Shown here piece after piece: positions 33,553 through 61,094 of a DNA stretch of 64,000 nucleotides. Position 1 is the stretch's first letter. The number at the start of each line of letters is the position of its first letter. This DNA is from Psammoneis japonica. Its lineage: Eukaryota. The position numbers were made by a program, and so were the translations under genes. The stretch spans positions 434,001-498,000 of the forward strand of contig QPGO01000014.1 of NCBI GenBank assembly GCA_008632985.1. Reading direction: 5' to 3'. The notes beneath the pieces were generated by a model. That model had not been told where the DNA came from, searched no databases, and was given only the letters and a program-made list of their open reading frames with translations.

Positions 33553-33932
33553 AATGCATTAGTGCGTATTCCTACACAACTTTAATTATCTCTTAATTTC
33601 ATGGAAGCTGATACGCAACCTGTCTCTTTGTAATTTCCGAACGCAGTAACACCTTCCTTTGCATAGGCTTGGAGCCTTCTTTGACCATTCTTCACACATA
33701 TTCGACCTGGTAGTAGACAAAACTCTTGATCGATTTTCACAAGGATCCTGTTTAACTCTCTTTAATTCATATCTATTCTAATTTGCAGCGATGTTCATTC
33801 TAGAGGCTGTCTCTCTAGTGGACCAACGTACTCGATCAGCCTTTTATCAATTCACCGGGTAACGTACCACTGACATTATAGGGACAGCTTTTCAAGACTT
33901 CCCTGCACAAGCAGTATGCACACAGCGAGCCA

Positions 33933-34442
33933 TCATGATTCGAGTGACGTTTCTGATCTCGATTGTTGTTGTTGGTGCTGCTGATTCGCATCGTCGTCAC
34001 GGTACACTGTATTTGGAGGCAAAGTGGATGGTTCGCCTTTTTGAATTGATCCATAGCCCGTCTTACCCAGGACGGATGGAACAGACACATTCTGGTAATA
34101 TCCATTTATGCTTTGCGATGACAACATGTTGGACGACGATTCGCAAGCATCCGAAACACATTGACAGAAGAATCCCACGACACCCAGAATCACTCCACTG
34201 TTGTTGCCTTGGTTTTCGTTATCAGTAAACATTTCCTCTTCTTCTTGTTCTTGTCGTAACATTTGTGCTTTTTGAGGCGTGTCATGATAGGAGTTTAGCG
34301 GTTTCGACTCTTCGCGTAGTGTACTAGGCGGCAGGCTTGGTTCTTCGGGCCACGTTTCGGGATCCTCATCCTTGTCTGGTCCTCCCACTCGCTCCAAGAG
34401 AGCATAAGCCTTTTGACGAATCTCCTCGGGACTATTACTCAT
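33933..34442 (-). CDS. Hypothetical protein with one hydrophobic segment
   Basis: ATG ORF MSNSPEEIRQKAY... with normal composition. Confidence 0.55.
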   Translation of the reverse strand: MSNSPEEIRQKAYALLERVGGPDKDEDPETWPEEPSLPPSTLREESKPLNSYHDTPQKAQMLRQEQEEEEMFTDNENQGNNSGVILGVVGFFCQCVSDACESSSNMLSSQSINGYYQNVSVPSVLGKTGYGSIQKGEPSTLPPNTVYRDDDANQQHQQQQSRSETSLES

Positions 34443-34499
34443 GTCTGGGCGTTTCCATATCAATAAGAGGAGACAATCTCCATGGAAGCTCCTTTTCTC

Positions 34500-36080
34500 C
34501 ACCGCCTTCTCTCTTCAGCCAGCTGCCAGCCACAATGGCCAGCTTGCCACCCTGAACCCTGCCAGAGAATCAACGACCGCACGACGTGGTCAGCAGGCAG
34601 GAGGGGCGGTGGCGGGCACTGGGCGGATTCGCGCGAAGATCCTTCATTTCGCGCGGAGACTTTTGAGTCCAGCTGTTCGACGAGGAAACGTTTGCCGCTT
34701 GTTTGGATCGGTTCAGGAGATGAAAAGCCTGTTGCTGGTGGTGACCCAGTCTAAACGTAAGCTTCTTGGCTGAGTGTGTCTTCTTGAAGTGGGGCAAATG
34801 ATGTGACAATGAAGATGAGGCATTGAGGGCAGCACCAACTGGGGCAAGAAGGCAAGCTTGTTGATGGCAACAAAATGAGGAAGGCATTTTTGCACAAGAG
34901 CTGATGTGCCTGACCTTGACCAGAACTCTGGCTTCATTTAAGGTTGCCACTGACAAGTGCAGCACAAACAATGGCAAGTGCTGGCAGAAAACCAGGCCTG
35001 CTGGCTCCGGACGCACTCCAGCTCCAGGTGGGACCTCGCACTGCTGCGCTGTGACATCAAGAGTTTTTGAGATCACATCACATGTTGCGCGTGCAGATGG
35101 CTGTGTGTGATGTTCTACAAAATTGTTTCATGCTCTCCATTTTGCAAAGCCAAAGGCTTTCCATTTTCAACATTTGTGATGATGAAAATGCGCTGGGTGT
35201 GTTCTCCAATGTCTGAAGAATGTTCCCGGGCAAACTGTTGATGATGTGCTTCAAGTGTGTGGGAGGAGATGCATTTGTAAAATTGCCTCTTTTTCTGTTG
35301 GCGATCATTTGCATTTTCATTGCTTGACAAATTTGCTGCGGAGCTTGCGCGCAGAATTCTATGGGCCCAATGTCACACGGAGTCCCACCCAGGACTGGAA
35401 CCCGTCTCCGACTCTCTCCCACATCAAAGAGAAGACACACACATCATCGTGCATGATGGGGGGCGGGGGGGGGGGGGGGGAAATGCTGCCTTGAGCAGTT
35501 GTGGCTTTCTTGAGCAAGGAGCAGGAGCTGCCAATTGGAAAAGAGCTTCAACAGCTGTTTTGTTCTGTGAGCTGCCACCTTGGATGCTCCTCAGCTGTCT
35601 CTCTCTTGGGCCCTCTCTGTGTGTTTCTGCACAGATTTTCTCTCAAGTCAAAAGGGCGTCTCAAGCCAGTGGGCCGTGGAGGTTGCTCCAGCCCGCGCAT
35701 GACAACAATGGCAAGAAAATGCACTCTGAAAGTGTGGGCACCACACCCCTGCATTTTTTGTTTCTCGTGTCGTGCACAAAAAGCACACCCCAGAATGCGC
35801 TGTGCCACGGAAGAGACCAGGTCACAAATCGAGGGCGCAGGTGTGATGAGGCACCTGGCCCAAACAAGAAGTGTCCTGCAAACCACCACAACCTCAAGTT
35901 CAAACACCCTCTGCCACCCTTCTTCTCCAAGGAGATCAGCCAGCACCTCCGAGCTGAATGGCTCATGAAATTTTGAAAAAATCGACCAGCGCCATTTCTC
36001 ATGGGTGGTTGCATGCGCCAGCGTGCGAAGGGATCGCTGCTGCCGGTCCGTCGATTCTTCCTTTTTTCGTGTTTCTTTCC
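34500..36080. other. TpA-depleted (partly CpG-depleted) tract C, probable TE remnant
   Basis: TA is rare across the tract while CG is retained at the edges. Poly-G run at ~35458-35480. Confidence 0.7.
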
Positions 36081-36411
36081 GTTTCTACCTACAAACACTT
36101 CAAAACATCAAAACATTTGTAAAAATAAGGAACGGTTGTCTTACTTTACTCAAGAATTGGGCTCAATTTCGAAATTTTGGTTGGATGCATTCTCAGTTTT
36201 GCCCAATTGTAAAAGATTCGCCGAGATTCGCTTTTCCTCCACCAGCCACTCAACTGACGATGTTTTGGCGCAAAAACAGCACACGAAGAGTAAAACGGGA
36301 ACACCATTGATGAGTAGATTCAATCGCGTCGGCGAAGTTGTTTGTTGACTGCATTTGTTAGCCTTATACTGCCTAAGCACTGCTGTTGGATTGTTAGAGA
36401 GTCTCAATAAA

Positions 36412-36942
36412 ATGCCGGTCCGTCAGAGAAAAAAGCCATCATCCGTTGAGTCGAAAACCGACGAATCATCATCCTCGTCTGCCTTTACCAAGCACGCTGC
36501 CAAGGATGCTGCTCTCCAAGAACCACAAGAACAAGTTCCAAAAGAAAAACAAAAAGGCTTGACATTTCTAGGAAACATTGCCGTCTTTTTGGGCTTCCCC
36601 ACCGTGGTCGGACTCGCCTCGTTGTATCTGAGCTTTGCACGCAACAAGTACCGAAAAATCAACAAGGAACTCGATTTGGATACGGACTTTGTCTTTCCCT
36701 TCTTGCTTGCGCTCTGTGTGGTGATTGTGATTGGCTTTCAAACGAAAAACTTTACCCGACTGGAAAGCAAACCACTCGTCCAATGGCCCAAGGTGCGAAG
36801 GAAAAAGACAATTGTACACAAACGTGTAATCGTCAATGAAGATGGTACCAAGGAAGAAGAAGAAGTAATTGTGGAGCCACCCACAAAAGTGGATGCTCCA
36901 AAGAAGACAACAAAGAAACAAAAAAGTCGAAAAGAAGAGTAA
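36412..36942 (+). CDS. Small two-TM membrane protein
   Basis: MPVRQRKK start, two hydrophobic helices, Lys-rich tail ending KSRKEE. Confidence 0.7.
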   Translation: MPVRQRKKPSSVESKTDESSSSSAFTKHAAKDAALQEPQEQVPKEKQKGLTFLGNIAVFLGFPTVVGLASLYLSFARNKYRKINKELDLDTDFVFPFLLALCVVIVIGFQTKNFTRLESKPLVQWPKVRRKKTIVHKRVIVNEDGTKEEEEVIVEPPTKVDAPKKTTKKQKSRKEE

Positions 36943-37030
36943 AGAAACCACACCGACAGTCTAACTAAATGTAATAGTGATTTCAGTGTATATGATTATA
37001 GTGACCCTACTATGATTTTTCTTTCTTTTT

Positions 37031-38378
37031 TTAAAAAATCATGCTGTCTCCTTCCTTTTCATGCTTGTGCACAAACTCCGTTACACCACCCGCTTCTTCA
37101 ACTTGTTTTTGATCCCATCCCAACTCTTGACAGACCGTTTCAAGACTATCGGTAATGATGAATTTCTTTCTCGTGTCTTCATTGACAAAGCTAAGCAACG
37201 CCTTGGATGTGGATGCCTGTGGTAAAAGTAGTGAGAGAGAGACGAGAGCAGTCGTTAGTTTTCTTATCCCTTACAACATTACTCAACAATTGCACACAAA
37301 TTTTCGTATTCAACTCACCACCATTTTGGAGACCGGATACATGACCATCTTGGCCAACGTTTCGGGATAGTTGGGTTCAAAGACGGCATAGATTTGTTTC
37401 AAGATATCGACACGAAATCCCGCCGTGACACTGACACCACTCAAATCAATAAATTGACACGTTTTGGGTTGACGACAATTGGCACTCCGTCCCAACATGA
37501 TTTCGGTAAAAATCACAAAGGCCTTGACGACATCGGCCGGATCGTGATTGTCCTCGAGGGTCTGGAGTTTGGCGTAATTGACATAGACACAAGCAGCCTG
37601 CTCGTTGCTGCTGTCGACGTCGACTTCCGAGACGGCCTTGAGTTTTAAAATATCTTGTAGACCCTGTGTCGTCAAATCGATTGGAAAGTACGATGTTTTC
37701 CATGCATCGTGTTGTTGCATCATCATCATGGCATCCGGCACATTGTCGTTGCGTGCCGCCAAGTAACGTGCCCACGAATGCACCTTGGAATCCCAACCGT
37801 GTCGTTCCAACGACAAGACGAGCGGATTTTCCGCATCCGCAGCACTCTTGATGGACTTTATTTGTGCCAATAACTTTTGATAATTGTCTCCGGCTTTTTC
37901 GGAAATGACTCGAGATAATTTCTTTTTCTGGTCATCGTCAAGATTAACTTGTTGTTCCAATTCCTTGGATAAATGTTCGAGTTCATCGGAATCAAAATCG
38001 GGAGCAAACCGACGAAAGCCTTCGCCATTGACGCCAACAATACAGTCACCCACTTGAACTCCCGACGTTTTCGCAACCGTCTCTCCCTCCAGAGCTTGCC
38101 CACCATGGCGTAGCCCGGAACAAACATTTCACTCGTGGCGGCCTATTTTTAATAGGAAAAGAATGGAAATTTTAGTAAAAAACGTGAGCACATTGCGGAT
38201 CGTCTTCAATTTTTGAAATAATTCAACGGACGGACGACGATGCAGCACCGCCTACAAAACGCACCTTGTCAAGGTTCACAAGCTGTGCTCCAAGACTTCC
38301 ACTAGGATCATCCTTGAAAGATACCGTAAGAAGAGACGGTTTTTCAGGCGATGTCGATTCAAACAGTGGGTTCGGCAT
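37031..38378 (-). CDS. PDZ-domain + CRAL-TRIO (Sec14-like) protein; introns 38264-38143 and 37318-37217; 1-bp deletion near 38092
   Basis: GSLGAQL...GVQVGDCIVGVNG (PDZ). RYLAARNDNVPDA, FIDLSG, FEPNYPETL, FVNEDTRKKF (CRAL-TRIO). Confidence 0.85.
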
Positions 38379-39899: not shown

Positions 39900-41417
39900 C
39901 TAGGAGGAGGTTGGCGTGCTCGAGAATGGTTCAGCGCAAAATTCAAAAGGGTTGCAGACAAAGGAACGCCTCTTGGAATAGGGAAGGTCCTCAATGTCCT
40001 TTCGACAGATCGGGCAACTTGACTGTTCCCCCTTGTATCGGACCGGCATGTTCAATGGAGACTTTTTAACAAGATCAAGCCACCACTTTTTCATGCACTT
40101 GAAGCAAAAGGCGTGCTGACAAATTCGGAATTGAATGTCTTTTTTGTCAACCACCTTGGCGAAACAGAATTCGCATCTGGGCGTAGAGTACTTGGGCGGC
40201 GACGAGCATACATCCAACTTTACGGGCCGAAAGGTTTTCTCGTCGGCTTTGAGTTTGTGAAAGATGCGAATGTTCTCATCCATCTCCCCCGTTTCTTCGT
40301 CAACTTCGTACAGTATGGACTGGCCCATGGTCATGATTGCGGCGGACATGTTTCCTACTTGCTTGAAGCCAAGAGCCAGATACTTGTGGATGCCAGGCGA
40401 GTGCTTGTCAAAACTCATAATTTTCATGCCCGCCTGTATGCAAAGAATCCAGTTGCCGAGTTCGTACCAGCAGCGACAGTTGGCCATGAGTATGCGGAGT
40501 TGGATATCATCCGATGCACAGTCTCTTGAAATCTGTCCAACTTCTCTGAGGGCAGAGTAGTACAGACCAACTCCAATGAGAGATTCCGCATGGATCAACT
40601 TTGCCTTCGTCCAGGTATCGAAAGAAGGGATGGTTAAGCATAAAACTTTTTTCTCCATCGTTTTCTTTGCAAGAGCTGCGTCACCCATTTTATTGCACAT
40701 GGTTGCCTTTGTCATCTGAGCAGCAACGTAGGGTTCGAAATCTTTGTCTTCGTGGCCAACCGTCTGGTCAAAGTCTTCCAGCGCCTTTTCGTAAATAGCC
40801 CTCTTGGCGTTTGGATCTTGCTGAAGGCGTGCTACCGTGATGGACTGCGTCCAGTTTTCAAAGGCGGTGCTCCGTAAATCGAACGGCGAACGGCAAAGTG
40901 GACAATTCGTTTTACCGTGCACCCGATTACAAGTATTGTCCCACTTCTTCAGGCACGGATAACAAAAGGCATGGCTGCATGTCTCCAATAACGTAAGAGG
41001 CCTGGTCATGTTCTCGGCCAAACATATGCCGCATTCCTTGCTCGTGACTTGTCCGGGCTGATACTCGAGAGCTTTAGCCCTCAACGCTGGAAGCTTTACG
41101 GTCAGAAACGCTTTGGTTTTCTTACACAATCCCTTGTGCTGCTTCCAGTCCCGCCTCTGACAGTCTTTGCTGCAATAGTATCGCCTTTTGCACGAGGAGC
41201 ATCGTAACGTCGGGGCCTTGTCGCAGTCTGGACCGTCACAGCCAATCACGTCGTTACTCACAGTGACACACAAACCGTTTGTCGTGGTTACCGTAAAGGA
41301 CTTTGTTGTCGGTAAGGATGATGCCGTTGCGTTGCTCGCCGTTTTCAAACGGAAGCAATGATGCATGGTCGGTGAGGATGAAGTAGTACTACTTGCAGAC
41401 ACAGTGAAGGAGTTCAT
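39900..41417 (-). CDS. MYND zinc finger + RING + TPR-like + RING protein
   Basis: CSSCKRRYYCSKDCQRRDWKQHKGLC (MYND); CGIC...CSHAFCYPC...CPLCR and CEFC...CQHAFCFKC...CPICR (C3HC4 RINGs). Confidence 0.88.
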   Translation of the reverse strand: MNSFTVSASSTTSSSPTMHHCFRLKTASNATASSLPTTKSFTVTTTNGLCVTVSNDVIGCDGPDCDKAPTLRCSSCKRRYYCSKDCQRRDWKQHKGLCKKTKAFLTVKLPALRAKALEYQPGQVTSKECGICLAENMTRPLTLLETCSHAFCYPCLKKWDNTCNRVHGKTNCPLCRSPFDLRSTAFENWTQSITVARLQQDPNAKRAIYEKALEDFDQTVGHEDKDFEPYVAAQMTKATMCNKMGDAALAKKTMEKKVLCLTIPSFDTWTKAKLIHAESLIGVGLYYSALREVGQISRDCASDDIQLRILMANCRCWYELGNWILCIQAGMKIMSFDKHSPGIHKYLALGFKQVGNMSAAIMTMGQSILYEVDEETGEMDENIRIFHKLKADEKTFRPVKLDVCSSPPKYSTPRCEFCFAKVVDKKDIQFRICQHAFCFKCMKKWWLDLVKKSPLNMPVRYKGEQSSCPICRKDIEDLPYSKRRSFVCNPFEFCAEPFSSTPTSS

Positions 41418-43401
41418 GGTATAATAACAAGGATGCAGTTGTAATACACAACACTCAATGGGTTGTGAAGACACTTTGGCGTAATCTGAATCGTAGTGCT
41501 GGTTGTGTTTCGTGAACTCGGCCGACACGACACAAATGCACGAGACGTTTTCATGGCCGTTTTGAAAAAACCTTGCAAACTTGCAAACCCTTTTTTTCGG
41601 CGGGACAGGTTTAATTCTTTTGAATCAAGAAGAAGTCAGAACGACATGATGTTGAGCTCTTGATGATGACAGGTCCCAAGCACTTGCACTTGCTTGCACC
41701 TCTCGGATCAACTTCTCGAGGCGAACGTGGAGCAAAGGCAGCGCTCACGACGAGTCAAGCAAAATAGTCTTTCCCAGTCTGGAGACCAGAAGTACAAAGA
41801 AGCCATCGCCAAATGACGAGTCTCCTTTTTGGAACACCTACGGAAGACATGTGAGCCGGTAGAAGGATCAGAACTCTCGGCATGCTCCTGCAAGAAGCTG
41901 CGACGAGCAGCAACGACGCCATGGCTGATTCTGATGATTATCGATCGAGCGATTCCTGTTTTTCTTGTCGTCTGTCCAGCGCGCGCCAGCGATCCAATTG
42001 TATCCGCCTGTCTGTCCACGCGTGGAAATTCCGTTGAGATTTTCCCGCCACTTTGGACCAAATTTTTAGAGGCTCAACAACAATTATGTGCCACAAATTA
42101 TGTTACAAGGCCATGTTCTGGTCTTTTGAGTGCAAGTTGTTGAGAAGATGGTAACTCGTCCGGCCTAGACAGCCCATGCTTTTGGTCAGTTGTTTTGTGT
42201 GAGAAAGACCGTTTGGCTGAATGCCCACATCACTGCCAGCTGGGGCCCTGCTTGACAGTGCAGAGTCAATGCACGCAGTGTTTGTGTCAGAATCTCCATC
42301 AGGTGCCATTCAACATCTTGGACTAGAACTTGGTCAGGATCCCAGCGGAAGCGATTGTTTTGTGCAACAGAATGGTCGTCGGCGCTGAACTCACTCGGAG
42401 CTGAGTGTGGCATCAGGCTCCCCGATTCAATCAGCAGCAACGGCTTGATCCTCACAAAAAATGGACAAGACCATCTGGTTGCCATTGACCTTGAAGACTG
42501 GTCTGATGTTGAGGAGACTGGACAACTTCTTTTTGGTGTGTCTGCATCAATGTGTTGCACATCTGGCATGTTCGGTCGCACACAAGCACCTGGCCAGTGA
42601 GCCCACGCCACATCCCTCTCGTCCATGATTGCTGGATTGGTTCCTCATCTGCTTCTGAGTCTAGAGTCATGGAGCAATGGGTGAGGCAATCTTTTTGACT
42701 GTGACACTTGCGGATCCTGTGGCCTTGTTTGGCCTGATCTAACCACATTTCTGCTTGCACAGGACCGCCATCTAACTTTCAAGCAAACTTTCTCAACACC
42801 AGACCCCGTTGGCATTCCACCGCACAGTCGCACCCTTGAGACGTCTCCCAACATGTGAGAAATCAGAACAAAGTGAATCCAATGTTTTGGGTTATGTTCA
42901 TGATGCGAGTGCGGTGTTTTCATTGGATCGACGCCTCTCCCACGTCTCTCGCCATGTGTTTTTGTCAACCTCAATTTCAACTCTCCCATGTGGCTGTTAA
43001 AATTGCCCTGACCGCAGGCTTGACACAGCACATTTGCATTTTCTTGTGGATTGCTGCATCCATTCCCAACTGAGGAGTGTCATGCAGTGACAGGAACGTT
43101 TCCGTGAGGGGCAATGGCATTCCATGTTTGCGGTGATTTTCCATCAGGAAAAGCATCTGCCACTTGTAACATTCTTCCTCTTCATCATCTTCCTCGAATG
43201 ACACTGCAGGCACTTGCAAGGAGTTTTGGTGTGATGTCTGGGGTGCTGCATCTTCCGCCAGATTGCCGCAGTCATTGTCCATCTCGTCAATCTCGTCGAC
43301 ACTCTCCAGCCGTGATGATGACCTTTCTTCATTGGTGCCTTCACGCCCAACTTTGCCTTCCTCATCCTCAGAGCTCTCCCAACCACAAAGATTCATGTCT
43401 G

Positions 43402-44448
43402 TCAACCCAATGGAATGGAGATGCAACCAACATAAACTGACAAGTGCTTCTTCCGCCGCATTGACAGATCATGAAATCCAGCACTCTCTCTTAGAGACAT
43501 CATCACAGACAGTGCACACAGGACAAAACAATCGGTCAAAACAGAGAACAATGCCGGTGGGCGCCTCGCCATTGACTCTGCCACAACTTGTGTCAAGGGA
43601 GACTTGTTCTTCTTCTTGGCAAGACATTGCCATTGCTTCATCTTGACATTCACCTTGCACTCCAGGAACATTCTCTGCAAGTGCATCCCAGGTGCAAGCC
43701 CACACTCATTGCATTTCACAGGGCATCCCTTGATCACAATGGCACCCAACTTAATTTTCAAACTTGTTTTCTTTGCCCCCTTGTTGAAACAGGGGATGCC
43801 CTGTTTGTCAGCATTCAAACGCAAATGTTCTGCTGAGACAGCAATGTTGCATGACAGAGCATCCATCCCATTGACATTGATGGCATCCGCTTGTGAAGCA
43901 TGAAATTCTTGGTTCATTTTGGTCATCAAGTCCCAGAGAAATGACACAAAAACCATTTGTGTCAGTGGCTCGTGAGGGCTGCAGCATCCAAACAAGAGGA
44001 ACCTTGCATGTTGCAGGTTGACCAAGGCTTCGGGAAGGAACGTCGTGAGGTTTGCTTTGTGGTCATGGAGGCCAAACGAGTCAATGAGATTCTCCACATC
44101 CGTCAGTTTGTTTGTTTGTTTTCCTCCCATCTCAAACCTCTTGAACTTCTGAAAGGACAGCTCTGATTCATCCTCAAACATGCCATGATGAATCTTGTCA
44201 GCATTGAGACTGCCACTGACAAGGTTTGCACTGCAATCGCTGTCATCACTGACAGCTCTTTCACTTTGGCTGGGAGTCTTTGTCATTTTCACAGGATGGA
44301 AGGCACCACAGAAACAAATGAGATCCAAAGCGCGTGGATCTTGAAGGTTTGTTGGGTCTTCCATGTGCTCTTGAAGATCTGACTTGATGTCCTTGCAGCA
44401 ATTTTCTGGTGTCAATGCCAGGCAGTCAAGCAAAAAATCAATTGTCAC
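43402..44448 (-). pseudogene. Decayed ORF with possible PD-(D/E)XK restriction-endonuclease-like C-terminus
   Basis: FLECK...LTQVVAESMA...SVLTD pattern; essentially no Tyr in the body of the ORF. Confidence 0.35.
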
Positions 44449-46184
44449 ATCCGGATTTTCACAAATGCGATCCCTTTGCGTTTGATCTGTTGCATTCCAA
44501 AGTTTTTTGTGTCAAAATCACTCAAAGTAAAAGTGTCATCTCAGACCACACCATCACCCAATGCATGGTTCTCAAACAACCCTCGATGATCATCCAACAA
44601 TTTTTCCCATTGACCGTCTTTCTCTGGATCATGGTCAAGATGATCTGTGATGTCCAAGATGTGTTGGAGGATCATGGTTTACTCTTGATGAACTGGGGGG
44701 CGGCTCCAGCCAGCTGCTGGCTGAAAAACATCTGCTCGTCAGTGCGTTTGGGGGTTTTGCCATCGCAATTTTTACGTGCGGTGTGCAAAAGAGGGCAAGT
44801 CTGTCCAGTGTTCACCGAAAGAACCCCCCTGATGCACAGATTGACAGACTCTTTCAGTGCAAATTCTGCACAAGATTCTTCAGCCAGCAGCTGGCTGGAG
44901 ACTTCCCCCAGAATGGCAGAAGTTGCTCAACATGTCAGCAGCATGAGTGCACAATGCTGCACATGAAAATGGCAACAAAAATGCTTTTATGCACAAAAAA
45001 CAAGTGAAGACAGTCTTGAGTCTGCCTGTCAGTGTGTCTGGGGGTCCTAAACATCAGAGGGAGAAATGCAAGAGCAAAACAAGATGATGATTGTTCCTTC
45101 TCTCTGCATTCCTCCAGAACAACTCTTTTGTCATTTTCAAGCCAAGGATGCATTTGGGGCCTTTCACAAGCACGAGATGGCCAAATGGTTGTTGTCAAGC
45201 CGCATCACAAGCATGGGTGCCAAAAAAAGCACGGCAACGCTTCTCAAGGCTGAGTGTGGTGCAGGGCGCATGCCCAATGTGGAAGGCATGTTTCAAGATG
45301 TGGAGTGGGGTCAGGAAACCATGAACTGACAAAGGGAACTTTGCAGGATCAAGATTGACTGAGTGCAATTGACATGGAAGTGCAAGTCTTGACAACGGGA
45401 CAGTGTGAGCACTTGTTTGTTGAAAGAGATGAAAGCTGTTGTCAAATTGTCTTGTCACTCATTGCAATCCCTTTTTCTCCCTTGCAACAGTTGGCTGGTT
45501 TATTCACAGCCCACAACAGCTTGGCTCAAGGATTTGCAAGACACTTTAATGAGTGCTGCAAGAAACCTGTCAGGGCCGTCACATGATGTGGCAGTGCACG
45601 CTCAGCAATGTTGTCCTCAAGGCCAATCTCAACAACAAGAGGCACCATTTGGTCATGAGTCCTCTGCAAGCAGAAAAGCACAAGTGGACTCTCCCAAAGG
45701 TTCAAAAAGCCATTGGAGTTGAGGACTGTGGTGATGTGGAGCATTTGCTTTAGTTGCTGTGCACCGGTGAGGACGGCACATGTGTCTTTCACAAACATGA
45801 CCATCAGGAACCAGGCACCAACCCGGCCAACAAAAAGGTTTGTCAAGCTGTCTTTGATCAAGACCACAATGAAAGCTTTGAACACTCCCTCTGGCAAATC
45901 AAAATTAACAGCATTGTCTTCAATGAGACCAAACAAGAGCATGAAAGGGTGGTGCAGGCCATGTCTCATGATCACTTGAAAGCATGCAAAATCCTCTTGC
46001 ACCGTGAGCTCATGGAGCCACAGGAAAGTTCGAAAATTGGTGTCCCTGCAGAAATTGGTGCTGACTCATGTGCATGCTTTGCCATGTTAAAAGGGTTCTT
46101 TTTGAGCAAAACACTTCTCACAATCGACCATCTGCTCCGGCATGGCTGATGCCAATGAGCAAGAGTTTTGGCCACAGTTGAACA

Positions 46185-47800
46185 ATGGGCTTGAGCAGTG
46201 CCAGTGCAGTGTCATGGAAGATGGTGAAGATGCCACTTGATTTGGCCATTCTCATTGTTCAAGAGATTGCAAAGAAGAAGCACAAGCTGAAGCAACAAGA
46301 GTTAAGAGATTGTGGTGGCAGAAGCAACAACAATGGCATGGCGCCAATTGATGTGCCTTGACAGCAACTGATGCTTGCTGTGGATGCAAATCCACTGGCT
46401 TGCAAACATGATGGTGACTGCTCAAGCTTGCATCCTGACAATGCTGTTTTTCACATTGTGAGAATGTTGTCAGAGAATCTTCGCAATTTGGATGTTGTTG
46501 CTGATCATCCAACAAAGCATCACCCATCCAAGCAAGCTTCTTGTGAGCATCAAGCCAATGCCAACAAGGCTGATGTTCAACTCATTGTGGCAAGATCTAA
46601 TCTTCAGAGTCTTTTGGCTGCTGGAGATGGTGGTGGCCCGGATGAGTGTGTGAAACAAGTCAACAAAGCACAGAAACGAATGCAGAGTCTTGAGAAACCA
46701 CTGAAAAGTGGGTTGGATCCAGAGTTTGCTGAGAAGCTTGGTTGCTCAATCAAGGAGTGTGACCCACAAGGAAAGGGTCAGATGTTGTTTTCTGTTGCTC
46801 CAAAACAAGCTGATCCCTGTCTTGCCAAAAAAGTTGCAGATGGTGATGTCGATGCTGTGATTTTTCTGGAGACTCTCTGACTTTTTGATGCACATTGGCC
46901 CCAACTGATGGGACTCATGCTGAAAGAAAGACATTTCCATTGCAAAAACAAAAGAGCCCATCAAATCATGTTGATTGTGCAAGGGCCAAGAGTTGATCAC
47001 AACTTGCATTGAACAAATCTTACAACCTGTTCTTGAGCATTCACCATTTGAGAATGACAAAAGCCAGAAACAAGACAGGAATGTTCCGAAGTGTCCAATC
47101 TTCAGTGGAGTCCAAGACGATGGTTTGAGCTCCATTGGCCATTCTGGTGGGCTGTGATGTGTGTGCCAAAGGAGCACTTGGGAGTGGTCTGCATGCAGTG
47201 AGTGAACTGATTCAGTTGCATTCAAAGGAAAAGACAAGAGCAAGAACTCCACACAATGCTCTTGCAACTGCCATTTGTGAGATGTCTGGTGCAGCTGTTT
47301 TAGAAAAAAAAGCTGTCCTGACATGGGCAAAGTCTGTTCTGTTTGAGAAGATGCATGGCAGTGGACACATTCACGGTCAGCCGCCAATGGTTTTGGGACA
47401 TTGCCTCAAAGATTTTGTGGGAGAAAGTGCAGAAATTGAAGATGGTCCCACATTTGCAGCGTGCAAGGGGTTCAAGAGAACCAATCATGAGTTTCTTGCA
47501 GCAGAGGGAGTCCAAGAGTGTGCCATCTGTTCTTGCAAATTTTGCCACATTGTTGAAAAAGACAAGTTGCCTGGAGGTGAAGACAGAACGCTCTGCCTTG
47601 AATGCTTCTTTGAGGATGCTGCATTGGGTGTGGACAGCCAGGATGAGAAAGATGTGCAAGAACATCTTGCAGGCAAGGGTGTCCAAGCACTGCAATGAAC
47701 AGCATTGCATGTTGAGGTTTTGTCTCTGTGTGAGGATGCTGAAGCCGGTGCCTTCAACCAATTCGATGAAGACATCACAGATGTCAAGCTCCCGCTGCTC
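46185..47800 (+). pseudogene. Decayed XPG/FEN1/Exo1-family nuclease followed by a Cys-rich finger, probably TE-borne
   Basis: MGL start, LAVDAN, DVVADHP.K.HPSK, APKQADPCLA...VDAVI, then GDSDF after a frameshift, AILVGCD (H3TH), CAICSCKFCH...LCLEC. Confidence 0.7.
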
Positions 47801-47859
47801 CCAACATCTTCACTCATCCTTCACAGGAGCCCAACTTTCATCGAATTGGTCATGGGACA

Positions 47860-48350
47860 CAGTTGGCTCCAATGATGAGATCAACATTCATGGTCTCAGA
47901 GGCACCAGCACTGTCACTGTCTTGGTGATCCTGGCAATGGATTGTGTGCTGACTCTCTGTTGTTCTGTGATCACTTGGAACATCAATCAAAGTGATGAGG
48001 CCATCCATGATCTCAGAACCTTGTTTGAATGCACAACCCCAAAGGCATTCATCCAACATTTTGTGGTGGCAAAAACCAAGGCACTTGTCAGGTTGGAGGG
48101 TTTCTCCTGTTGTCACCTCAACTCCTGTTGGAGAGGTGACCATCCCTCTTGCACCTTGCACAATCAGTTGCACTCTTGGGGATGTCAAACTCATCAACCA
48201 TTGCCAGCAGGATTGCCCCACCACAAGGCTTTGCATTTTCAAGTTTCATTTCAAACATCAAAGTCATGACAACTCCTTTCTCCTTTGCAAAAGTTTCTGC
48301 TGCACTTGACCCCACTGGGTTGACACCAAAAATTGCAATCTTGAACTTAG
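47860..48350 (-). pseudogene. chlP: Decayed 5' fragment of geranylgeranyl reductase
   Basis: KIAIFG..PVGSSAAETFA...FEMKLENAKPCGGAI..AMVDEFDIP, then in the next frame SPTGVEV..GETL...MNVDLIIGA. These match the ChlP N-terminal half. Confidence 0.85.
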
Positions 48351-48769
48351 CTTTGCGGCACTTGCACAGAGAAACAGACCAAAAATGGACTGACAGAGCA
48401 GAGACATTGTCAAGAACTTTTCCTTTTTTTGAAAATGATGGGAACCCAAGAGAGAGGGAGCCTGTCATTTGTCCTTTTTTAGTTGGGAAAAGCAGGGATT
48501 TGCTTCGTGCAATTGACGCAGTCATGCAAAGGGAATTGGGGTTTGCGTGTGCAAATCTTTTAGCTTCTTTTGCACAATTTTTGAACAACACCTGGCGCCC
48601 CATCACAAATTTTTTCATCCTTGGTTTTGGCTGTCTTGGGGGCTTGATGCAAATGGTGCAGTGCCAGTCCCATGGTTGCAGCTGCTGATGCCAAGTGTGT
48701 CAATGCATTTGAGCCATCATCCTGAAGGGACCCAGTGCTCACACAGCAGTCTTCCCAACTGGGATGTTT

Positions 48770-49060
48770 GTGGTGTGGTGAGCAGACCTTGCTGTTGTTG
48801 TGCTGGTCCTCACATTGACAAATCCACGTGCTTCAGAATGCAGCTTTTGCTGCTTGTCTGAAAGTCAAGCTGCAATCATTTGCAGGGTTGCTCTGGCTTT
48901 CTTGCCAATCAATCCCATCACAAGACACCACAAAAGGTTGTTTGAAATGATGATGTTCTTGCTCAAGGCACAGCTTGAGACACTTGCACCATTTTTTCTC
49001 TTTGTCATCAGGTGGATCTTGCTCTGGCATCTGGGAAAGGCAGGATTGCACATGAACTTC
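48770..49060 (-). mobile_element. Non-LTR retrotransposon remnant (CRE-like restriction-like endonuclease C-terminus)
   Basis: EKKWCKCLKLCLEQEHHHF..PFVVSCDG and LIGKKARATLQMIAA*LSDKQQKLHSEARGFVN, similar to EKK.KYL..CLEQRRHFTPFVVS.DGL.G.EA...KPYS...GYVN. Confidence 0.7.
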
Positions 49061-50199
49061 AAGCATTTTTTTGTGTTTGGTTGCAGCTCTTGCTGGAGCT
49101 CTTGCTCCCGCACAAGACAGCATTTGCTTTTCTTGCTCTCGACTGCTGGCCACTGACAGGTGCAGCTTGCCGTGTGCCTGGGAGGCAAACAAATCTTTGT
49201 TGCTGCCATGCCTCTGCAGCATCATTGTTGTTTTGTAGATGCAGCCCTGCCATTGTCTTCTCCATTCAATGCCTCTTGCAACTGGTGGGGTTTGTGGTTC
49301 TTGGTGTTTGGGTGTGGTGGCATTGTTGCTGTCACAATGCTGTCTGTGGGTTGCAGCATCAATGTGTTGGAGATGGTTCTGTGGGTTTTGGTGCTGGTGC
49401 TTCAGTTGTCAATGTTGTCATTGGCGCGCATCACAGGTGCGGGTGTTGCAATTGGTGTCAGCATCACAGTGGTTGCAGCAGCACAAAACTGGCATGAGAG
49501 ACACCTTGTTGGGCACAGGGCTGTGGCAGCAGCTGTGTTGGCAAGGTCCAAACTGGCTCAGCCAAGAGGTGCAATGGCTCTGCTTTGCCACTGTTCTGGC
49601 TGCAGTTTGCTGTGGCACTTGTGCGTCAACTGAGGCAGCCAGCATCCAGCTCAATTTTTGTCATCTGCCCTTTGGCACAGGCTTCATGAGCATTTTTTGA
49701 GCAATGTGGTGCACAAGAACAAAGTTCTTCTCTCCAATGGGAAAACACAATTGTTGTTTGGAGGAACACTTGCATTGAAAGCTCCTTGGAGAGAGGCAAG
49801 CAATGGGACAAGAGTGCACCAAGGCTCAACAGTGTGCTGTCTGCATGGCCAGCAATTGTCATGGGCAGCCGTGGCCAGGACTGGTGCATTGCACCCAGCA
49901 GCGCTGGCTGACAATGATGGTGGTGAATTGAGAAAACCAAATCTCCAGCTGAACAACCCAGAAAGTAATTTGTAACCTCGCCTGCTGGGAATGATTGGAG
50001 GAGGATAAAAGTGCTGTTGCAGGTGTGCTGGGGCCAACTCTGAGTTGTCTTCTTGCTCAGAGCATCATTGGTGCACAGCTGAGAGCTGAGCACAACAGAC
50101 AGAGGCACCATTTTGGGGAACTCCAGTCCTTGCTGCCAATTGGCAGCATGGAATGGAAGAGGCGTGCACATTGCTCAGATGGAATCCAGGATCACAAAA

Positions 50200-50560
50200 T
50201 GCCACCTTTGTCACCTGGCTGTCCTGCTGTTCTTGCTTGGTCAGATCATGACAGAGCAGCTCTGTGGTGCAATCTGGAATGGACTGGGAGGGTCAAACAT
50301 GCCTGGATTGGACAAGTTCTTGCACATGAGAGTTGAAACCCCAAGATTGTGGGCTTCTTTGTTGCAAGTCAGCGGCACAGCTGGTTCTCATTCTCTGTGG
50401 GTCTGAGACATTTGTCATTGCAGCATGCACAATGCTTCAGACCTTGCAGAGCTTTCACACTTGCTGGGCAGCCCAGAGCCTTGCTGTTTGTGCAACACTG
50501 CAAAATGCAGATGGGGTTGAAACATTTGAGTGAGGAGTGAGAACACCTGGACATGGCTGT
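50200..50560 (+). mobile_element. Non-LTR retrotransposon (RTE-like) post-RT region remnant
   Basis: DHDRAALWCNL...AWIGQVL...PR and KSAAQLVLILCGSETFVI...MLQTLQSFH, similar to YKAVVQSVLLYGSETWV...ML..LEGFH. Confidence 0.6.
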
Positions 50561-52481
50561 GATGCCAAAAGAGGCTGATGGTCTGTGCCCTTGTTTCCTC
50601 ACAGAGACTCTCTCCTGAAGCCACATGGACAGTGTGCCAGACACTGCCTTGTGCAGGTGCTGCATCTCAGCACAGCTCCAAGGCATGCAGTTTGAATCCA
50701 AGAAAATTTCCAATGATGTCACACAATGATCTGCAGCAGATGCCAAACTGTTTCCATCAAGTTTCTTCCAAATTTCTCCTGATGTCAAATGCAAGGCCAC
50801 AGGAGGGGGGGGGGTGCTGAGAAGCTCTGAAAATGGCGTCTTGGTGTGGGTTGTGGTTGGCATCAGCACAGAAGTTTGCACACATTTTTGGGGCTTGTTG
50901 CTGGGTGCTCGCAGCTGACTTGCTCCTGCTGCAGCCAGTTGAGGCTGCTGCGGCTCTGCTCCTGCAGAGGCAGAGCTGGTTGTTGCAGCACCAGGAGAGC
51001 CCAGGCCCTCTGATGGCATTGTTGGTGTTGGCATTTGACATTTGCCCAAAATCCAACTGGAGATCTTCAACAAACACTCAACATGCGAGCAACAACAGCA
51101 GCAGAAGGCACCTGACATTGAACTGTCAACATTGAAGACTGTGTCAAAAATGGCTTGCTGTCACTGTTCTCTAAAAAATGCTGAGAGAAGTGAGACAAAG
51201 GCAGACAACAGCCATCGTTGCTTCACACCCAAATTCCAGCACTTTTGACAGATCTTAGAATCTCTCTCTGCGTGCACTGGTGCTGCACCCACCAACAATT
51301 TTGATTTTTGCATGAAGTGCAAAAACATGAAAATCTGCCATGGGCTGTTTTGCATGGAAGACAGCCAGATGAAGTGGTGTGCACAAAAGATGTTCCTGCC
51401 AAAGCTGTGCTGAACATTTGGTGACTGCTGCTGCCCTCCCAAAATATTTTAAGGAAGCAGTCACACACACATGTGATGTGCTCTTTGCATGCAAAAGACA
51501 CATTCTCCAAATGCTGGCATGCCGAGACAGTCTGCTTGTTGAGCTGTGCAGGATCCCTTCCTTTCTGCACATTTTTGTCAAATTGGCATTGCCACAAATT
51601 CCCTGCCTTGGGCAACAATGTGCTGGATGTGACCTGCCAAGTGGCAGCCTCAAAAGCTGTCTTCCTGGCCAGGCATTCCATCATGAAGGCTTGTGGGCAT
51701 TGCTCATGACAGCACAAGGTTGGAGCTGATGATGACTGGGTGGGCTGCTGAACTCACCTGGATGAATGAGCCATCAGCACAACAGCACATTTCTCAGCAG
51801 CTCTCATGAAACAATGGTGACACCTGCTTTGTGACGCTTCAAATGAAACTCTGGTGCTGCCATGGCTTGAGAGCCTTGTCAGTGCTGCTGCAACAACTCC
51901 AAAGCCAACAAGGCACAGAAGTGATGCCACCACCTGCTGGAACATTGACAAAATCGGGTGCCAAGTTGCACCTCCATGTCTGGCACCAAAGTGCAGCAGA
52001 TTCAACTGGAGCGGCAGCTGCAGAAGGCAGAAGCCCCGTTCCTGGTCAGACATTCCATGACAAAAGCGTGCGAGTGTCGCCATGCCATGAAAATGTCAAA
52101 GCTTGCATGTTGCAGCAGTGAACCCTCACCTGAAACATCAAGCCAATTGACCATCACTCGAAACTGATCATGGCATCAGGCTCCCCGATTCAATCAGTGG
52201 CAACAGCTTGATCCTAACAAAAAATGGACAAGATCATGTGGCTGCCATTGACCTTGAAGACTGGTCCCACGTTGAGGAGACTAGACAAGTTTATTCTTTA
52301 TTCGGAATGTTTACATCAATTTTGTATATCTGGAGCACAAAGACAAAGCAGAAAGGTATGATGTTGGGTTCTCGATGATGGCAGGGTCCAAGCATCTCCA
52401 CTTGCATGCACCTCGGATCAACTTCTCGAGGGATGCACGTAGAGCAATTATAAAGCATCGCTCACGCACGTTGCTTCAAAG

Positions 52482-53173
52482 TCAAGCAAAAGTCTTTCCC
52501 AGTCTTGCAACTAGAAGCACTACAAATAAGCCACTGTCAAATAGCGAGTGATCTTTTGGGAGACGAACTCGTACAGCAAAACTGAGAGCCGGTAGAAGAA
52601 ACAAATCTCTCGGTATGCTCCTGCAAGCTGGGCACAACAACGCCATGGCTGCAGCACGGCTTTGAGGCTTTACGAGCAGTTCCATGGGATGTTACATTTG
52701 CTCAAGTTCCTGTTTGTAAAGCCTTGCCTTTTCAATTTGCTCACCCGCCATGTCCCCAAGCATAGCTATTGCATTATCGCGTGAAAGTGACTCCGATTCA
52801 TTGATTGAAAATTCCCCACGACTCCCAGCGAGCTTGCCGATCCAGTATAGTGTTTGGGGATTTCCTGAATCATGCAGATAGGCTTGCCGAAAGGCGGTTT
52901 CTTTATCAACTTCGCAAGCATCACCGTCAATGTTTATTCGATTTCATAGGGGACGCCATAGTTTAAGTGGATGCCAAGTTTGCAGTATGCAGCGCCGACG
53001 TTTGCGTTTTTACCGCCATCCGATTGGGTTTCGATGATTCGTGAAAGCAGTTCTATGGCATCATAATCAACGCCGTCGTGCATTAGAAATGTGTCATTGG
53101 AATTTTCCAGCTCATTATAAAGGTCCCAGAGTTTTTCGACGCTTGGTTCAGCTGGTGTGTTTGCCATACCCAT
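52482..53173 (-). pseudogene. Broken gene remnant whose 3' part is paralogous to 41646-41927
   Basis: Short ORFs with stops and frameshifts. DNA at 52358-52651 is similar to 41646-41927. Confidence 0.4.
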
Positions 53174-53527: not shown

Positions 53528-54414
53528 TTAGATTTCCACCGTCTCTACATCCTTGGATGCAGCTTCCTCTTCCTTGCCTTCTTCCGTCTTGGTCTCTTCA
53601 GTTTCCGTCTTGGTCTCCTCAGCCGCTTCAGCGGTGCCAGCCTCTTCCGTCTTGGTCTCCTCTGCAGCAGCCTCGCCACCACCGCCCGCGGCCAATTCCT
53701 TCTTCTGCCTCGCAGCCGCGGCACGCTCCCGGCGTTTGCGGTTCTTGGCTTCGAGCTCTTCAGGCGTAAGCTTTTGGTACCGTTCCCGTTCCAACCTGGC
53801 CCGACGAGCATTGCGCTCCTTGGCCGCATCGGCATCGAGCGAATGGTACCTTGCACGCTCCCGCTCTCTCCTCTTGAGGCGAGACTTTTCCGATTGACGG
53901 TGGTACTGCTCACGGCGCTTCTGATTGTAAATCTCACGCTGTTCCGGCGTCATGTTGGCATAACGCTGACGGTCCTTTTGACGACGAGCTGCCAAGAGCG
54001 CTTCGTGAGACGTGTTGGGCTTTTTCGCAGACGGCTGCTTGTCACCTCCTTCGGCACTGCGTTCACGGTATCGCTTGCGGCGTTGCTCATTCTTGCGAGC
54101 ATTCGAGTCGTCAGCTCCGGCACTCAAGCTGCTTCGGTGGCATTCACCACGGCTGCGACATCCACATCGACATCACCCGCTGCGGCGGCGGCAGCCGCCA
54201 CGGCGGCTTCTGTCATGAGCACACTTGGATCGGGCTCGTCTTCATCGTCTGCTTCTTTCGTGGCTACTGCAGCTTCTTCTTCTGCCGGTGCAGCTTCTTC
54301 AGCTGCTTCTACAGCAGCAGCTTCTTCAGTCGCTTCTTCGGTCGTTATTTCTTCTTCCTTTGTTGGCCCGTCCTCCTCAGCAGCGGGGGTTTGTTCTTCG
54401 TCAGGTTTGGTCAT
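53528..54414 (-). CDS. Acidic/Ala-rich + Arg-rich repeat hypothetical protein; 1-bp deletion near 54126
   Basis: MTKPDEEQ... joins SAGADD... via GCT[T]TG. Repeated RxRY....PE motifs. Confidence 0.75.
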
Positions 54415-58504: not shown

Positions 58505-60264
58505 CACTCTCCATCGTGAGTCTATGCGTCGACCGTTCTTCGCGCGCGCGCTCTCACGCACCCGAAGAGGTCTCCTCATAGACTCTCGCGGAAGTAAGAC
58601 GGACGATGTACCAGGGTCGTATGTAGGCCGTTTGTTACGGTGCCGTTTTTCCGGACATGCCGCAAGCGCATCGTCTCATTGCTGTTATCGGCATGAACGA
58701 CTCCCAAGGCTATCTAGCACTGTAGAATGAATCTTTCACAGTGTTGGGACGTTTCGAGCACACCATGACAAAGCCCCACAGTTGCATGACTGCCACATGG
58801 CTCCTCACTCCATCATCCACAATCGGGTGTGTTGACCCTTTTCTCTCGGCTCGATCGTGCTAGCCACACATCGAACCACGACCTGTGAACTATCACGCCA
58901 GGTCATTGAGCTGGCAGTCGTCCACCAGCAGTTGCCACAGGAGGCTGAAAAGAGAAGGGAGGATGCAAGAAGTGAGAACATCCGTGACACAGGATTCAAG
59001 AGAGGCAACAAAGTTGGAAACATCAACGCAAAAAATGGAAATGTTCTCACCGGCAATTAACGCCAAGGAAGAGACACGACAGCACCACTGAGCACCGAGA
59101 GGTGCGCCAAAGAATGCCACTGAATCCCCACCAAGCCCATCAATCAGCCTGTGTTTTCGATCCATGCTGCATCACAAAGCAGGAGATCTTGCCAGAGGCG
59201 AAAACAAAAACTGCAATTGTTGAGTCACAGAAGCAAGTTGTGAGCAAAATCACAACACCAACTTGCCAATTGACCTTTGTGCACATTCTTTTGTGTCTCT
59301 GTGCATGTGCTTGTTGCTGCAACGGCATTTGTCTCACGCCATTGCCAGAGGCATTCACACCATCGTGAACTGATGAAATCCTGCGTGAAGTGCAAGCCCC
59401 ATTGAGTGAGTTTGAATGCCAACAATTAACAACATTGTCACATGAGCTTACCTCCTTGACTCAGTGTCACCAAATGAGCACAGCCAACACACTCAAATCC
59501 ACCCAAGCGGTGAGAAATCGACACAACCGTGCAAAAATCTCCAAAAATGTCACAAAACAGCGACGCCCAACCAAAAATGAGACCCCAGACTGTCTTTGCC
59601 TCGAATCTCAGAACTGTGGTCAAACCACACCTCATGCAGACACCAGTGAACAACACCAAGGCATTGCATGGACTGAGAACCTGCGTGACAACGAGGGAGA
59701 GCCCAGTCCGTGAGCGAGCACATTTCTGGCAAAAAATGCAAAGCCATTTGTTGCGAATGACAGAAACAATGGTTGTGCCCCAAGAAAGACAATGCCATTG
59801 CAAGGCAATGATGAAAATGCGCGTGAGTTTCCATGTCATAACTTGCAGGGCGCAACGGAGCGGAGCATGCGACGACAATCAACAACACATGTCAGCACCC
59901 ACCGAAAAAGTGACGATTTTGCACTTGGTCAGTCTCGGGGATAAATCAATCAAATGTTTGCCAATTTTCTCCATTCTGGCACCATGGTGCGCTTCAACAG
60001 CGAGTGTCTGAACAACCACTGAGCGGTGCAAGGCATGGCGGTCGATGCGCCGATGAAATCAATCATCGTCGGAACGGCACATTTTCTGGTGTGTTTTGTG
60101 CAGAAAGCTCTGCAGAGCGTTTCGCCAAATCCAGGGAGGCATGGCAACAAATTTTGAGCCACTGTCCGTCTTGCTTCCGCGAGAGTCTATGAGGAGACCT
60201 TTTCGGGTGCGTGCGAGCAGCGCCCGCGAAGAACGGTCGACGCATGGACTCATGATGGAGAGTG
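58505..60264. mobile_element. Non-autonomous TIR DNA transposon, Mutator-like (1760 bp)
   Basis: ~105-bp TIRs (CACTCTCCATC...) and a 9-bp TSD ATTCTGTCC at 58496-58504 and 60265-60273. No intact transposase ORF. Confidence 0.9.
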
Positions 60265-60354
60265 ATTCTGTCCATTCATCGCCCTCTTTTGCGGACATTG
60301 AATGTGGTTTGTTGTGCTTCAAAGTCGCCAAATAATTGAATGAAAATGCTGATA

Positions 60355-60863: not shown

Positions 60864-61094
60864 TAGATGCGATGATCTTATGAATTTCTGTATCGGAATC
60901 AATATTGAATGTATCATATCTACGCTCGCGCGAGACACCAAGAAAAGAGGGCTTATAAAAAAATTGTAATTGTGACCCTGACCTTGTAAAACGTTTCGAG
61001 AGACGATGTCTCTCAATAGTCATTGTTATTCAACCTGCCATCCACAAAATTGCCCGCCGGCATTCTCATTTCAATCGAAGCACATACAAGGACG

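Follow-up and report, generated by a model that had tools for sequence, protein, structure and literature searches.

Tracts poor in TpA and CpG in Psammoneis japonica suggest a local transition hypermutation on both strands

We have studied a window of 64 kb (64,000 nucleotides) from contig QPGO01000014.1 of Psammoneis japonica. It contains five tracts in which TA has almost disappeared, CG is reduced and CA and TG are found instead. The explanation which we favour, with moderate confidence, is a local hypermutation of inactive DNA, in which the decay of CpG is combined with a faster process acting on TpA. The two self-complementary pyrimidine-purine steps, TA and CG, would be the sites of transitions, which would occur site by site and symmetrically on both strands. 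CG would be lost as 5-methylcytosine is deaminated where the DNA is methylated and inactive; TA would be lost by a separate, faster change of A:T to G:C, which would not extend beyond these domains. It seems to be the inactive, presumably silenced state of the DNA, rather than repetition of sequence, that makes it a target. The tracts seem to contain ordinary genomic DNA: a dead gene, fragments of genes, a repeat of high copy number and an element with inverted repeats. The analysis covers the five tracts and one pseudogene (Table 1).

Table 1. Tracts read as hypermutated and other features of the window
Feature	Position	Strand	Remarks
Tract 1	17752-22777		TA 23, expected 179; CG 35, expected 282
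Tract 2	25681-28079		TA 9, expected 85; CG 19, expected 134
Tract 3	34767-35974		TA 4, expected 43; CG 28, expected 68
Tract 4 (main finding)	42170-52268		10,099 bases; TA 36, expected 360; CG 131, expected 566
Tract 5	58899-59818		Within an element bounded by inverted repeats
Stretch without TA or CG	50401-50836		0 TA and 0 CG in 436 bases
Full-length pseudogene	43073-44675	-	Small family without Pfam match; relatives P0001-P0097
Cullin fragment	45120-45320	+	Pfam profile positions 390-457 only
Repeat A, left copy	41627-41927	+	Normal composition, just outside tract 4; partner 52340-52651, 73% identity
Direct repeat B, left copy	42391-42566	+	Inside tract 4; 82% identity to 52154-52333; CA/TG swaps
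Direct repeat B, right copy	52154-52333	+	Straddles the right border of tract 4
Inverted-repeat arms around tract 5	58505-58604 and 60164-60264		TA and CG retained

The borders were set by a two-state segmentation over pyrimidine-purine steps. They are sharp, the composition changing over tens of bases, and all five tracts lie where a previous reading, made from the sequence alone, had placed sharply bounded TA-poor regions. Between 9 and 13% of the expected TA (about 10%) and between 12 and 48% of the expected CG survive in the five tracts; expectations are taken from the rates in the flanks, which are gene-rich and have tetranucleotide biases of their own, and some of the TA counted as surviving may have arisen anew from CA or TG. 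The gain in CA and TG is as large as this loss. The observed/expected ratios in the tracts are 0.07 for TA, 0.31 for CG, 1.75 for CA and 1.70 for TG; the flanks have 0.53, 0.97, 1.18 and 1.17, with the highest TA ratios (0.78-0.88) in AT-rich spacers. GC content does not differ (about 0.48), and there is no depletion of AA (1.23 in the tracts, 1.17 in the flanks). The longest run without TA is 1166 bases in the tracts and 288 in normal DNA; the stretch previously noticed as devoid of both TA and CG is indeed so. The lack of tyrosine and the predominance of TGA stops, also part of the sequence-only reading, are confirmed: per 1000 six-frame codons the tracts have 0.8 for tyrosine (20.6 in normal DNA), 3.0 TAA and TAG (15.0) and 25.9 TGA (19.4).

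TA and CG have been changed to CA or TG in place: the number of pyrimidine-purine steps per base is conserved (0.234 in normal DNA, 0.240 in tract DNA), also inside each flanking context. CA and TG are equal in number and randomly interspersed (runs z -0.8; chi2/df 80/76), therefore both strands are equally affected. Swaps between CA and TG distinguish repeat copies in 13 of 498 columns inside the tracts, as compared with 5 of 1233 outside (p = 1.6e-4). Together with the pseudogene and the cullin fragment described below, the repeat copies show that the tracts arose by mutation, with a polarity from TA and CG to CA and TG, in line with the transitions on both strands proposed before.

The loss of TA depends on its neighbours. 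Of the 150 pooled TA counts which survive, only 2 are RTAY; in normal DNA it is 986 of 3160. TTAA is largely spared (survival 0.67). By 3' neighbour, survival is 0.04 for TAC, 0.04 for TAT, 0.13 for TAG and 0.27 for TAA; on each strand the loss follows the order C >= T > G >> A for the base after A. An additive model of the two strands is only rough: GTAA and GTAG survive above prediction. The loss of CG is greater where the flanks are A or T and, in tract 4, towards the right end. TA survival is about 0.1 at a CG survival of 0.12 and of 0.48 alike, so that the two losses are not proportional: that of TA has reached the same extent in all the tracts, that of CG proceeds more slowly and depends on the tract. 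The decay of 5-methylcytosine has the same features as the CG loss, namely change to TG or CA, a stronger effect with A/T flanks, dependence on the tract and conserved pyrimidine-purine steps. However it cannot delete TA, which in the tracts is lost faster and more completely than CG.

The pseudogene of tract 4 must be read across three frames, with two frameshifts and in-frame stops. It matches one relative (P0001) by tblastn with E 8e-121 and 47-56% identity; aligned with its relatives it has 39-47% identity, and the relatives among themselves 45-50%. All four conserved in-frame tyrosines have changed, three to His and one to Cys, as compared with 31 of the 173 conserved columns that are neither Tyr nor Arg (Fisher p = 0.0013). 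Three of the eight conserved arginines are now Cys, and WISRSV has become WIS-stop-SV. Among 39 changed in-frame conserved columns (frameshifted columns are excluded), 17 revert by a single transition which restores TA or CG, 8 by another transition and 14 by no single transition. The frameshifts and some further changes are not of the TA/CG kind.

The family of this gene is small and narrowly distributed, with 94 representatives among 1.84 billion proteins. Tyrosine content is ordinary in all 97 relatives, except for four short fragments. A metagenome scan with the family alignment gave 192 pattern matches and a scan of viral contigs 96, none of them confirmed. AlphaFold gave a poor model (mean pLDDT 55), for which Foldseek found no match at E <= 0.001; its best rows, all above this limit, belong to mitoribosomal chains, and lower down come DUF820 and restriction-endonuclease-like proteins. 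An Atlas search gave unnamed fungal clusters only, plus an HSDR_N cluster at 0.88. A nuclease-like core is no more than a lead.

The cullin fragment has conserved arginines changed to Cys and Trp and a conserved tyrosine changed to His; the piece had no match with longer proteins. An acceptor-like sequence, judged by eye, lies ahead of it. The fragment was the sole Pfam match in the read-through six frames of tracts 1, 2 and 4, the three longest. Tract 3 is the core of a high-copy repeat (34.4-36.1 kb): a search for protein relatives of its reading frame 34573-35127 on the minus strand found none, and a degenerate DNA pattern derived from the repeat had no match in a metagenome scan. Searches of flank reading frames against the tracts by tblastn, and of tRNA and Rfam, also gave no match.

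The tracts had been labelled as transposable elements and pseudogenes. The first label is not confirmed: Pfam detected no transposon protein family in 109 tract reading frames of at least 90 amino acids, and only one of the two tracts with a readable copy number is repetitive. The 10-kb tract does not show the marks of a transposable element: in its six read-through frames Pfam detected the cullin fragment but no transposase, reverse transcriptase or integrase, its depth is that of a single copy rather than of many, and in place of terminal repeats there is near its ends only a direct repeat of 180 bases.

Copy number was obtained from a public DNA run, X1. Two of its contigs, 40014-44754 and 44885-52521, span the left and right borders of the 10-kb tract, with a word depth over it of 58-65, the same as in the flanks; it is single-copy in X1 at a likeness of at least 85%. 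Tract 3 has a summed word depth of about 24,000-37,000, where the flanks have about 60.

These values bear on the comparison with fungal RIP, in which a RID/DNMT4-type enzyme acts before meiosis on duplicated sequence only and changes C:G to T:A, mostly CpA to TpA, with an excess of TpA and a lowered GC. The tracts resemble RIP as a hypermutation by transitions at the DNA level, sharply bounded, with genes destroyed and a footprint left in the dinucleotides. On the other hand they lose TpA, gain CA and TG (1.7), keep their GC and have A:T pairs affected; the direction is opposite to that of RIP, as had been claimed. We consider it unlikely that a RIP-like defence is at work, in which an enzyme of the DNMT4/RID type, with a partner acting on TA, would mutate duplicates in bursts after their recognition, which might precede meiosis. 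Such a defence would agree with the high copy number of tract 3, with the sharp borders and with the loss of TA, which is all-or-none in the five tracts and therefore suggests bursts. It would also agree with the RID-related DNMT4 genes widely carried by diatoms, with a function described as unknown (PMC9998398). However the 10-kb tract, single-copy at present-day copy numbers, is mutated, and the nearest relative of its gene does not exceed 47% protein identity, whereas a 2-kb inverted duplicate of HSP70, 96.9% identical, and a palindromic TA-rich element (60353-60865) are unmutated. CA and TG show no strand clustering either. The proposal that the process is targeted to repeats is thus not upheld.

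It is rather improbable that no special system exists and that the tracts are simply old, unconstrained DNA at the equilibrium of an ordinary mutation spectrum, with flanks held by selection. The dead genes of the tracts could be explained in this way, and the flanks are already low in TA and have CA and TG mildly raised (1.18). However the pseudogene is as similar to its relatives as they are among themselves, yet its TA is gone and 142 of the 173 conserved columns besides Tyr and Arg are still intact. Furthermore TA ratios peak in the AT-rich spacers of the flanks, CG is undepleted in the flanks and the borders are sharp.

Enzymes of the ADAR and APOBEC types also leave context-specific transitions in mobile DNA by deamination. 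Their target is a single strand, of RNA or cDNA, and the changes which they produce are clustered by strand; ADAR-type hyperediting prefers a 3' G. Transcripts edited from A to I and from C to U, then reverse transcribed and inserted, are a very improbable source of the tracts. RNA adenosine deaminases do prefer the change of A to G at UA, but the changes in the tracts are symmetric between strands, the order of 3' neighbours is not that of ADAR and AA is undepleted. Reverse transcriptase, poly(A) and long terminal repeats were looked for in the tracts and none was found; the acceptor-like sequence ahead of the cullin piece also argues against a retrocopy.

An artefact of sequencing or assembly, due to modified bases in heterochromatin, is very unlikely as well, and the tracts are to be taken as genuine DNA. 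The sequencing platform is unrecorded for both the assembly and X1, but X1 reproduces the tract in kilobase-long single contigs at full depth and without bubbles; a modified base misread symmetrically would be expected to leave CA/TG bubbles at each site. X1 and the window differ 6 times over 7,637 bases and 27 times over 4,741. At the differing sites the whole depth of X1 carries the other base, therefore X1 is not the same consensus as the window; it comes perhaps from the assembly's own sample, so that it is not fully independent. The frameshifts of the pseudogene and its changes outside the TA/CG kind also argue against an artefact. Four of the five differences listed inside the tract oppose TA or CG to CA or TG, which we read as a change that may be still ongoing. 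A search for RNA runs containing the tract listed none. In another run, X2, the contigs are spliced over the flank genes and give next to no cover of 42-52 kb; it was not counted as evidence.

Foreign DNA, from a virus or by horizontal transfer, natively poor in TA and CG would fit the small, narrow gene family, but it is hardly credible: the relatives have normal tyrosine, the tract copy is broken precisely at conserved Tyr and Arg codons and the search of viral contigs found no relative.

We return to our favoured reading, a local hypermutation of inactive DNA, and to the process which would remove TA. Three mechanisms had been put forward. Deamination of adenine after a 5' T fits best, although a preference for the 3' neighbour must be added. 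TadA/ADAT enzymes act on A after T/U and favour a 3' C, as in the UACG anticodon loop; these enzymes, like the adenine base editors made from them, share with the tracts the T before the A and a favoured 3' C, a likeness of footprint only. We tentatively suggest that an enzyme deaminates adenine in 5'-TA(Y) on either of the two strands, in the context of the tRNA anticodon loop recognised by TadA, and we know of no natural enzyme of this family which acts on chromosomal DNA. An oxidised or otherwise modified mutagenic thymine is our second candidate. A weak argument speaks against a modification like base J: telomeric repeats carry J in TTA, the context spared in the tracts. Error-prone patch repair is the worst fit of the three. 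In antibody somatic hypermutation, polymerase eta mutates WA motifs, both AA and TA, coupled to cytosine deamination. It would give A to G at TA, but in the tracts AA is undepleted and TA loss does not follow CG loss, and we have set it aside.

Searches of the literature found no description of a hypermutation which erases both TpA and CpG, in agreement with the previous reading. To that reading we add the context of TA loss (RTAY erased, TTAA largely spared), its strand symmetry and its equal extent in all tracts. To our knowledge the known mutational defences and forms of decay (RIP, methyl-CpG decay, APOBEC editing) all act on cytosine. It is possible, if still doubtful, that the tracts are due to a dedicated defence which edits A:T pairs, through a nuclear TadA-like TA(Y) deaminase or a thymine-oxidising enzyme of the TET/JBP type, either of which would act on silenced or foreign DNA in both its strands. 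Such editing, together with deamination of 5-methylcytosine, would scramble the DNA irreversibly. If true, it would be the first case in eukaryotes of a natural hypermutation system aimed at A:T pairs, in effect a natural adenine base editor of double-stranded DNA. A process which strips about nine tenths of TpA from chosen domains with a sequence preference would be a new chemistry for genome defence, and might hint at an enzyme of use in A:T-to-G:C editing of double-stranded DNA. Its footprint, with RTAY erased, TTAA spared and CG loss lagging behind, could be tested for simply across a whole genome and would serve as a clock to date the silencing. The process would also account for the way in which unwanted DNA is disabled in a compact algal genome.

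Two states alternate along the window when the observed/expected ratios (o/e) of dinucleotides are computed in windows of 500 bases. In normal DNA the o/e of TA is about 0.3–0.9 and that of CG about 0.6–1.4. In five stretches these values fall to 0–0.15 and 0–0.5, and those of CA/TG are near 1.6–2.1. A two-state model over pyrimidine-purine steps gives the limits listed in the table: they agree with the five tracts of the sequence-only reading, and the state changes within tens of bases. The pooled o/e values of TA, CG, CA and TG are 0.07, 0.31, 1.75 and 1.70 in the tracts vs 0.53, 0.97, 1.18 and 1.17 in the flanks; GC content does not change. From flank rates, 360 TA and 566 CG would be expected in tract 4 (the 10-kb tract), which has 36 and 131. 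The 436 bases at 50401–50836 have neither TA nor CG, as had been claimed, and the longest run without TA is 1166 bases in the tracts vs 288 in normal DNA. Tyrosine is indeed scarce: its codons are 0.8 per 1000 in six-frame counts vs 20.6 in normal DNA, and TAA plus TAG fall from 15.0 to 3.0. A sixth TA-poor stretch, 53547–54310, was rejected as a tract: it is GC-rich (0.59) and has kept its abundant CG. It lies within an ORF of 413 residues with no Pfam family.

Features of the window, with positions in the window
Feature	Position	Strand	Remarks
Tract 1	17752–22777		two-state model
Tract 2	25681–28079		two-state model
Tract 3	34767–35974		two-state model
Tract 4 (10-kb tract)	42170–52268		two-state model
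Tract 5	58899–59818		two-state model
Longest tract ORF	43405–44511	minus	
HSP70 inverted duplication	7498–9506 and 31543–33551		62 differences, 41 transitions
Direct repeats around the 10-kb tract	41627–41927, 42391–42566, 52154–52333, 52340–52651		order A, B ... B, A

The tracts are real DNA, as judged from the public DNA run X1, which may share its sample with the assembly and whose sequencing platform is unrecorded. Of the words sampled from the 10-kb tract, 93% occur in X1. Two of its contigs, spanning 40014–44754 (27 differences from the window) and 44885–52521 (6 differences), run across the left and right borders with a word depth of 58–65, that of the flanking genes. The consensus of X1 is not that of the window, since at the listed differences the entire depth carries the other base. 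If a symmetric modified base had been misread, each site would be called CA in one half of the cases and TG in the other, which should break the graph into short pieces; contrary to this, the contigs are 4.7 and 7.6 kb long. Between them, at 44755–44885, the contigs break and the summed depth reaches about 3,400. This segment codes for a C2H2-like motif, keeps some CG and TA, and partially matches contigs of the RNA-like run X2. The adjoining RING/MYND gene (40294–41385) has at least 18 differences from X1 in about 1.1 kb, far above the 6 in 7.6 kb of the right-hand contig.

On the sequence evidence the tracts are mutational in origin, and the direction is from TA and CG to CA/TG. Transitions in place predict a constant number of pyrimidine-purine steps, as seen: normal DNA has 0.234 per base and the 10-kb tract 0.240, and the number is constant also for each pair of flanking bases. 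Swaps of CA for TG are expected between repeat copies, because an ancestral TA or CG could resolve oppositely in each; they number 13 in 498 aligned columns inside tracts vs 5 in 1233 for repeats in normal DNA (p = 1.6e-4). The 10-kb tract contains a pseudogene and a cullin fragment (45120–45320, Pfam E 3.8e-12). By comparison with human CUL4A, conserved Arg of the latter has become Cys and Trp, and conserved Tyr has become His. Among the differences from X1 listed inside this tract, four of five are TA/CG vs CA/TG, which suggests that the process is recent or still running; the list leaves out four more differences on the contig concerned.

The pseudogene provides a further comparison. The longest tract ORF has six relatives (544–604 residues, 40–46% identity), and tblastn extends it to a complete gene copy, 44675 to 43073 on the minus strand, with three frames, two frameshifts and in-frame stops; one stop replaces the Arg of WISRSV in the relatives. 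We considered as conserved those in-frame columns which are the same in at least five of the six relatives. All four Tyr columns have changed, three to His and one to Cys (Fisher p = 0.0013). Three of eight Arg columns have become Cys (p = 0.17, not significant), and 31 of the remaining 173 have changed. Leaving out frameshifted columns, 39 in-frame columns have changed: in 17 a single transition reverts the change and restores TA or CG, in 8 the reverting transition is of another kind, and in 14 no single transition suffices. Tyr content is ordinary in the 97 retrieved members of the family, with the exception of four short fragments. The family has 94 representatives among 1.84 billion proteins, of about 550–600 residues with no Pfam match; its predicted alpha/beta core weakly resembles restriction-endonuclease-like folds.

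The process is strand-symmetric, in agreement with the sequence-only reading, and acts on one site at a time: CA and TG are equal and interspersed at random (runs z -0.8, chi2/df 80/76). TA loss depends strongly on context, as tetranucleotide counts in tracts vs normal DNA, with both strands pooled, demonstrate: ATAC 0 vs 262, GTAC 0 vs 252, GTAT 0 vs 262, ATAT 2 vs 210 and TTAA 40 vs 134. On the same pooled basis, and relative to normal DNA, survival is 0.67 for TTAA, 0.40 for CTAA/TTAG and 0.135 for CTAG. A rough additive model per strand ranks the 3' neighbour of A as C >= T > G >> A, equivalent to G >= A > C >> T for the 5' neighbour of T. CG loss is stronger with A/T flanks (survival 0.086 in ACGT, 0.38 in CCGG). 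TA survival is uniform in the five tracts (0.09–0.13) and that of CG is variable (0.12–0.48), so TA loss is faster, saturated everywhere and not proportional to CG loss.

Deamination of 5-methylcytosine turns CG into TG/CA with an A/T-flank effect. The CG loss has this pattern, and the tracts are presumably methylated. We know of no cytosine process which removes TA. Our leading guess for this step, a tentative one, would be adenine deamination in 5'-TA(Y); TadA acts on a UACG anticodon loop, a context which, going by the footprint, matches the loss in the tracts. A mutagenic oxidised thymine at TpA may be a second candidate, suggested by the same footprint. Polymerase-eta patch repair, proposed earlier, fits poorly because AA is not depleted and the degree of TA loss does not follow that of CG loss. 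ADAR-type RNA editing also fits poorly: both strands are affected alike, the 3' neighbours rank as above, and the tracts lack retroelement features. A base-excision repair gene is found in the same window (3780–5057, minus strand): it joins a HeH/LEM domain to a DNA glycosylase of the Fpg/Nei type (E 6.7e-21 for the H2TH domain). To our knowledge it has no link with the tracts.

The sequence-only reading had called the tracts transposable elements and the process repeat-targeted; neither label is borne out. Pfam found no transposase, reverse transcriptase or integrase in 109 tract ORFs or in the read-through frames of three tracts. Tract 3 is a high-copy repeat (summed X1 depth about 24,000–37,000; 2294 matching contigs, most of them 90–95% alike), and tract 5 lies inside an element whose inverted termini of roughly 100 bases retain TA and CG. 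However, the 10-kb tract is mutated and single-copy in X1 at 85% likeness or more, except for about 130 bases near 44755–44885, whereas the 2 kb HSP70 duplicate (96.9% identity) has normal composition and the palindromic element 60353–60865, which adjoins tract 5, is unmutated and rich in TA (37 in 513 bases). The common denominator of the tracts looks like inactive DNA. The palindromic element is MITE-like and contains nested inverted repeats, 68 and 141 bases long. In each HSP70 copy two ORFs are separated by the same break, probably an intron. The A copies of the direct repeats are outside the 10-kb tract and normal in composition, the B copies inside or on its border; their order is neither that of a simple tandem duplication nor of long terminal repeats. 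Tract 1 has a 73-base tandem duplication (17812–17957, 96% identical) immediately inside its left border, and units about 500 bases apart recur in it (18907–19129, 19402–19656).

The flanking genes are eukaryotic. In the Atlas cluster nearest to a flank protein Bacillariophyta are commonest (phylum known for 4 members only), which makes a diatom plausible, if unproven. Spliced X2 contigs skip 37216–37317 (102 bases) and 38142–38263 (122 bases), with CT..AC ends: both gaps are GT..AG introns in a gene on the minus strand. Searches of openly available full texts found nothing that describes a loss of TpA from silenced DNA, in diatoms or other eukaryotes; the sequence-only reading, too, knew of no description in diatoms. 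Passages of PMC12344493 are silent on it; according to passages of PMC9998398, DNMT4, which is related to RID, occurs widely in diatoms, and its function is unknown. A categorically new A:T-directed editing system is possible, although we consider it less likely than not. We rate the phenomenon as a form of decay, or of defence, by point mutation in silenced DNA.
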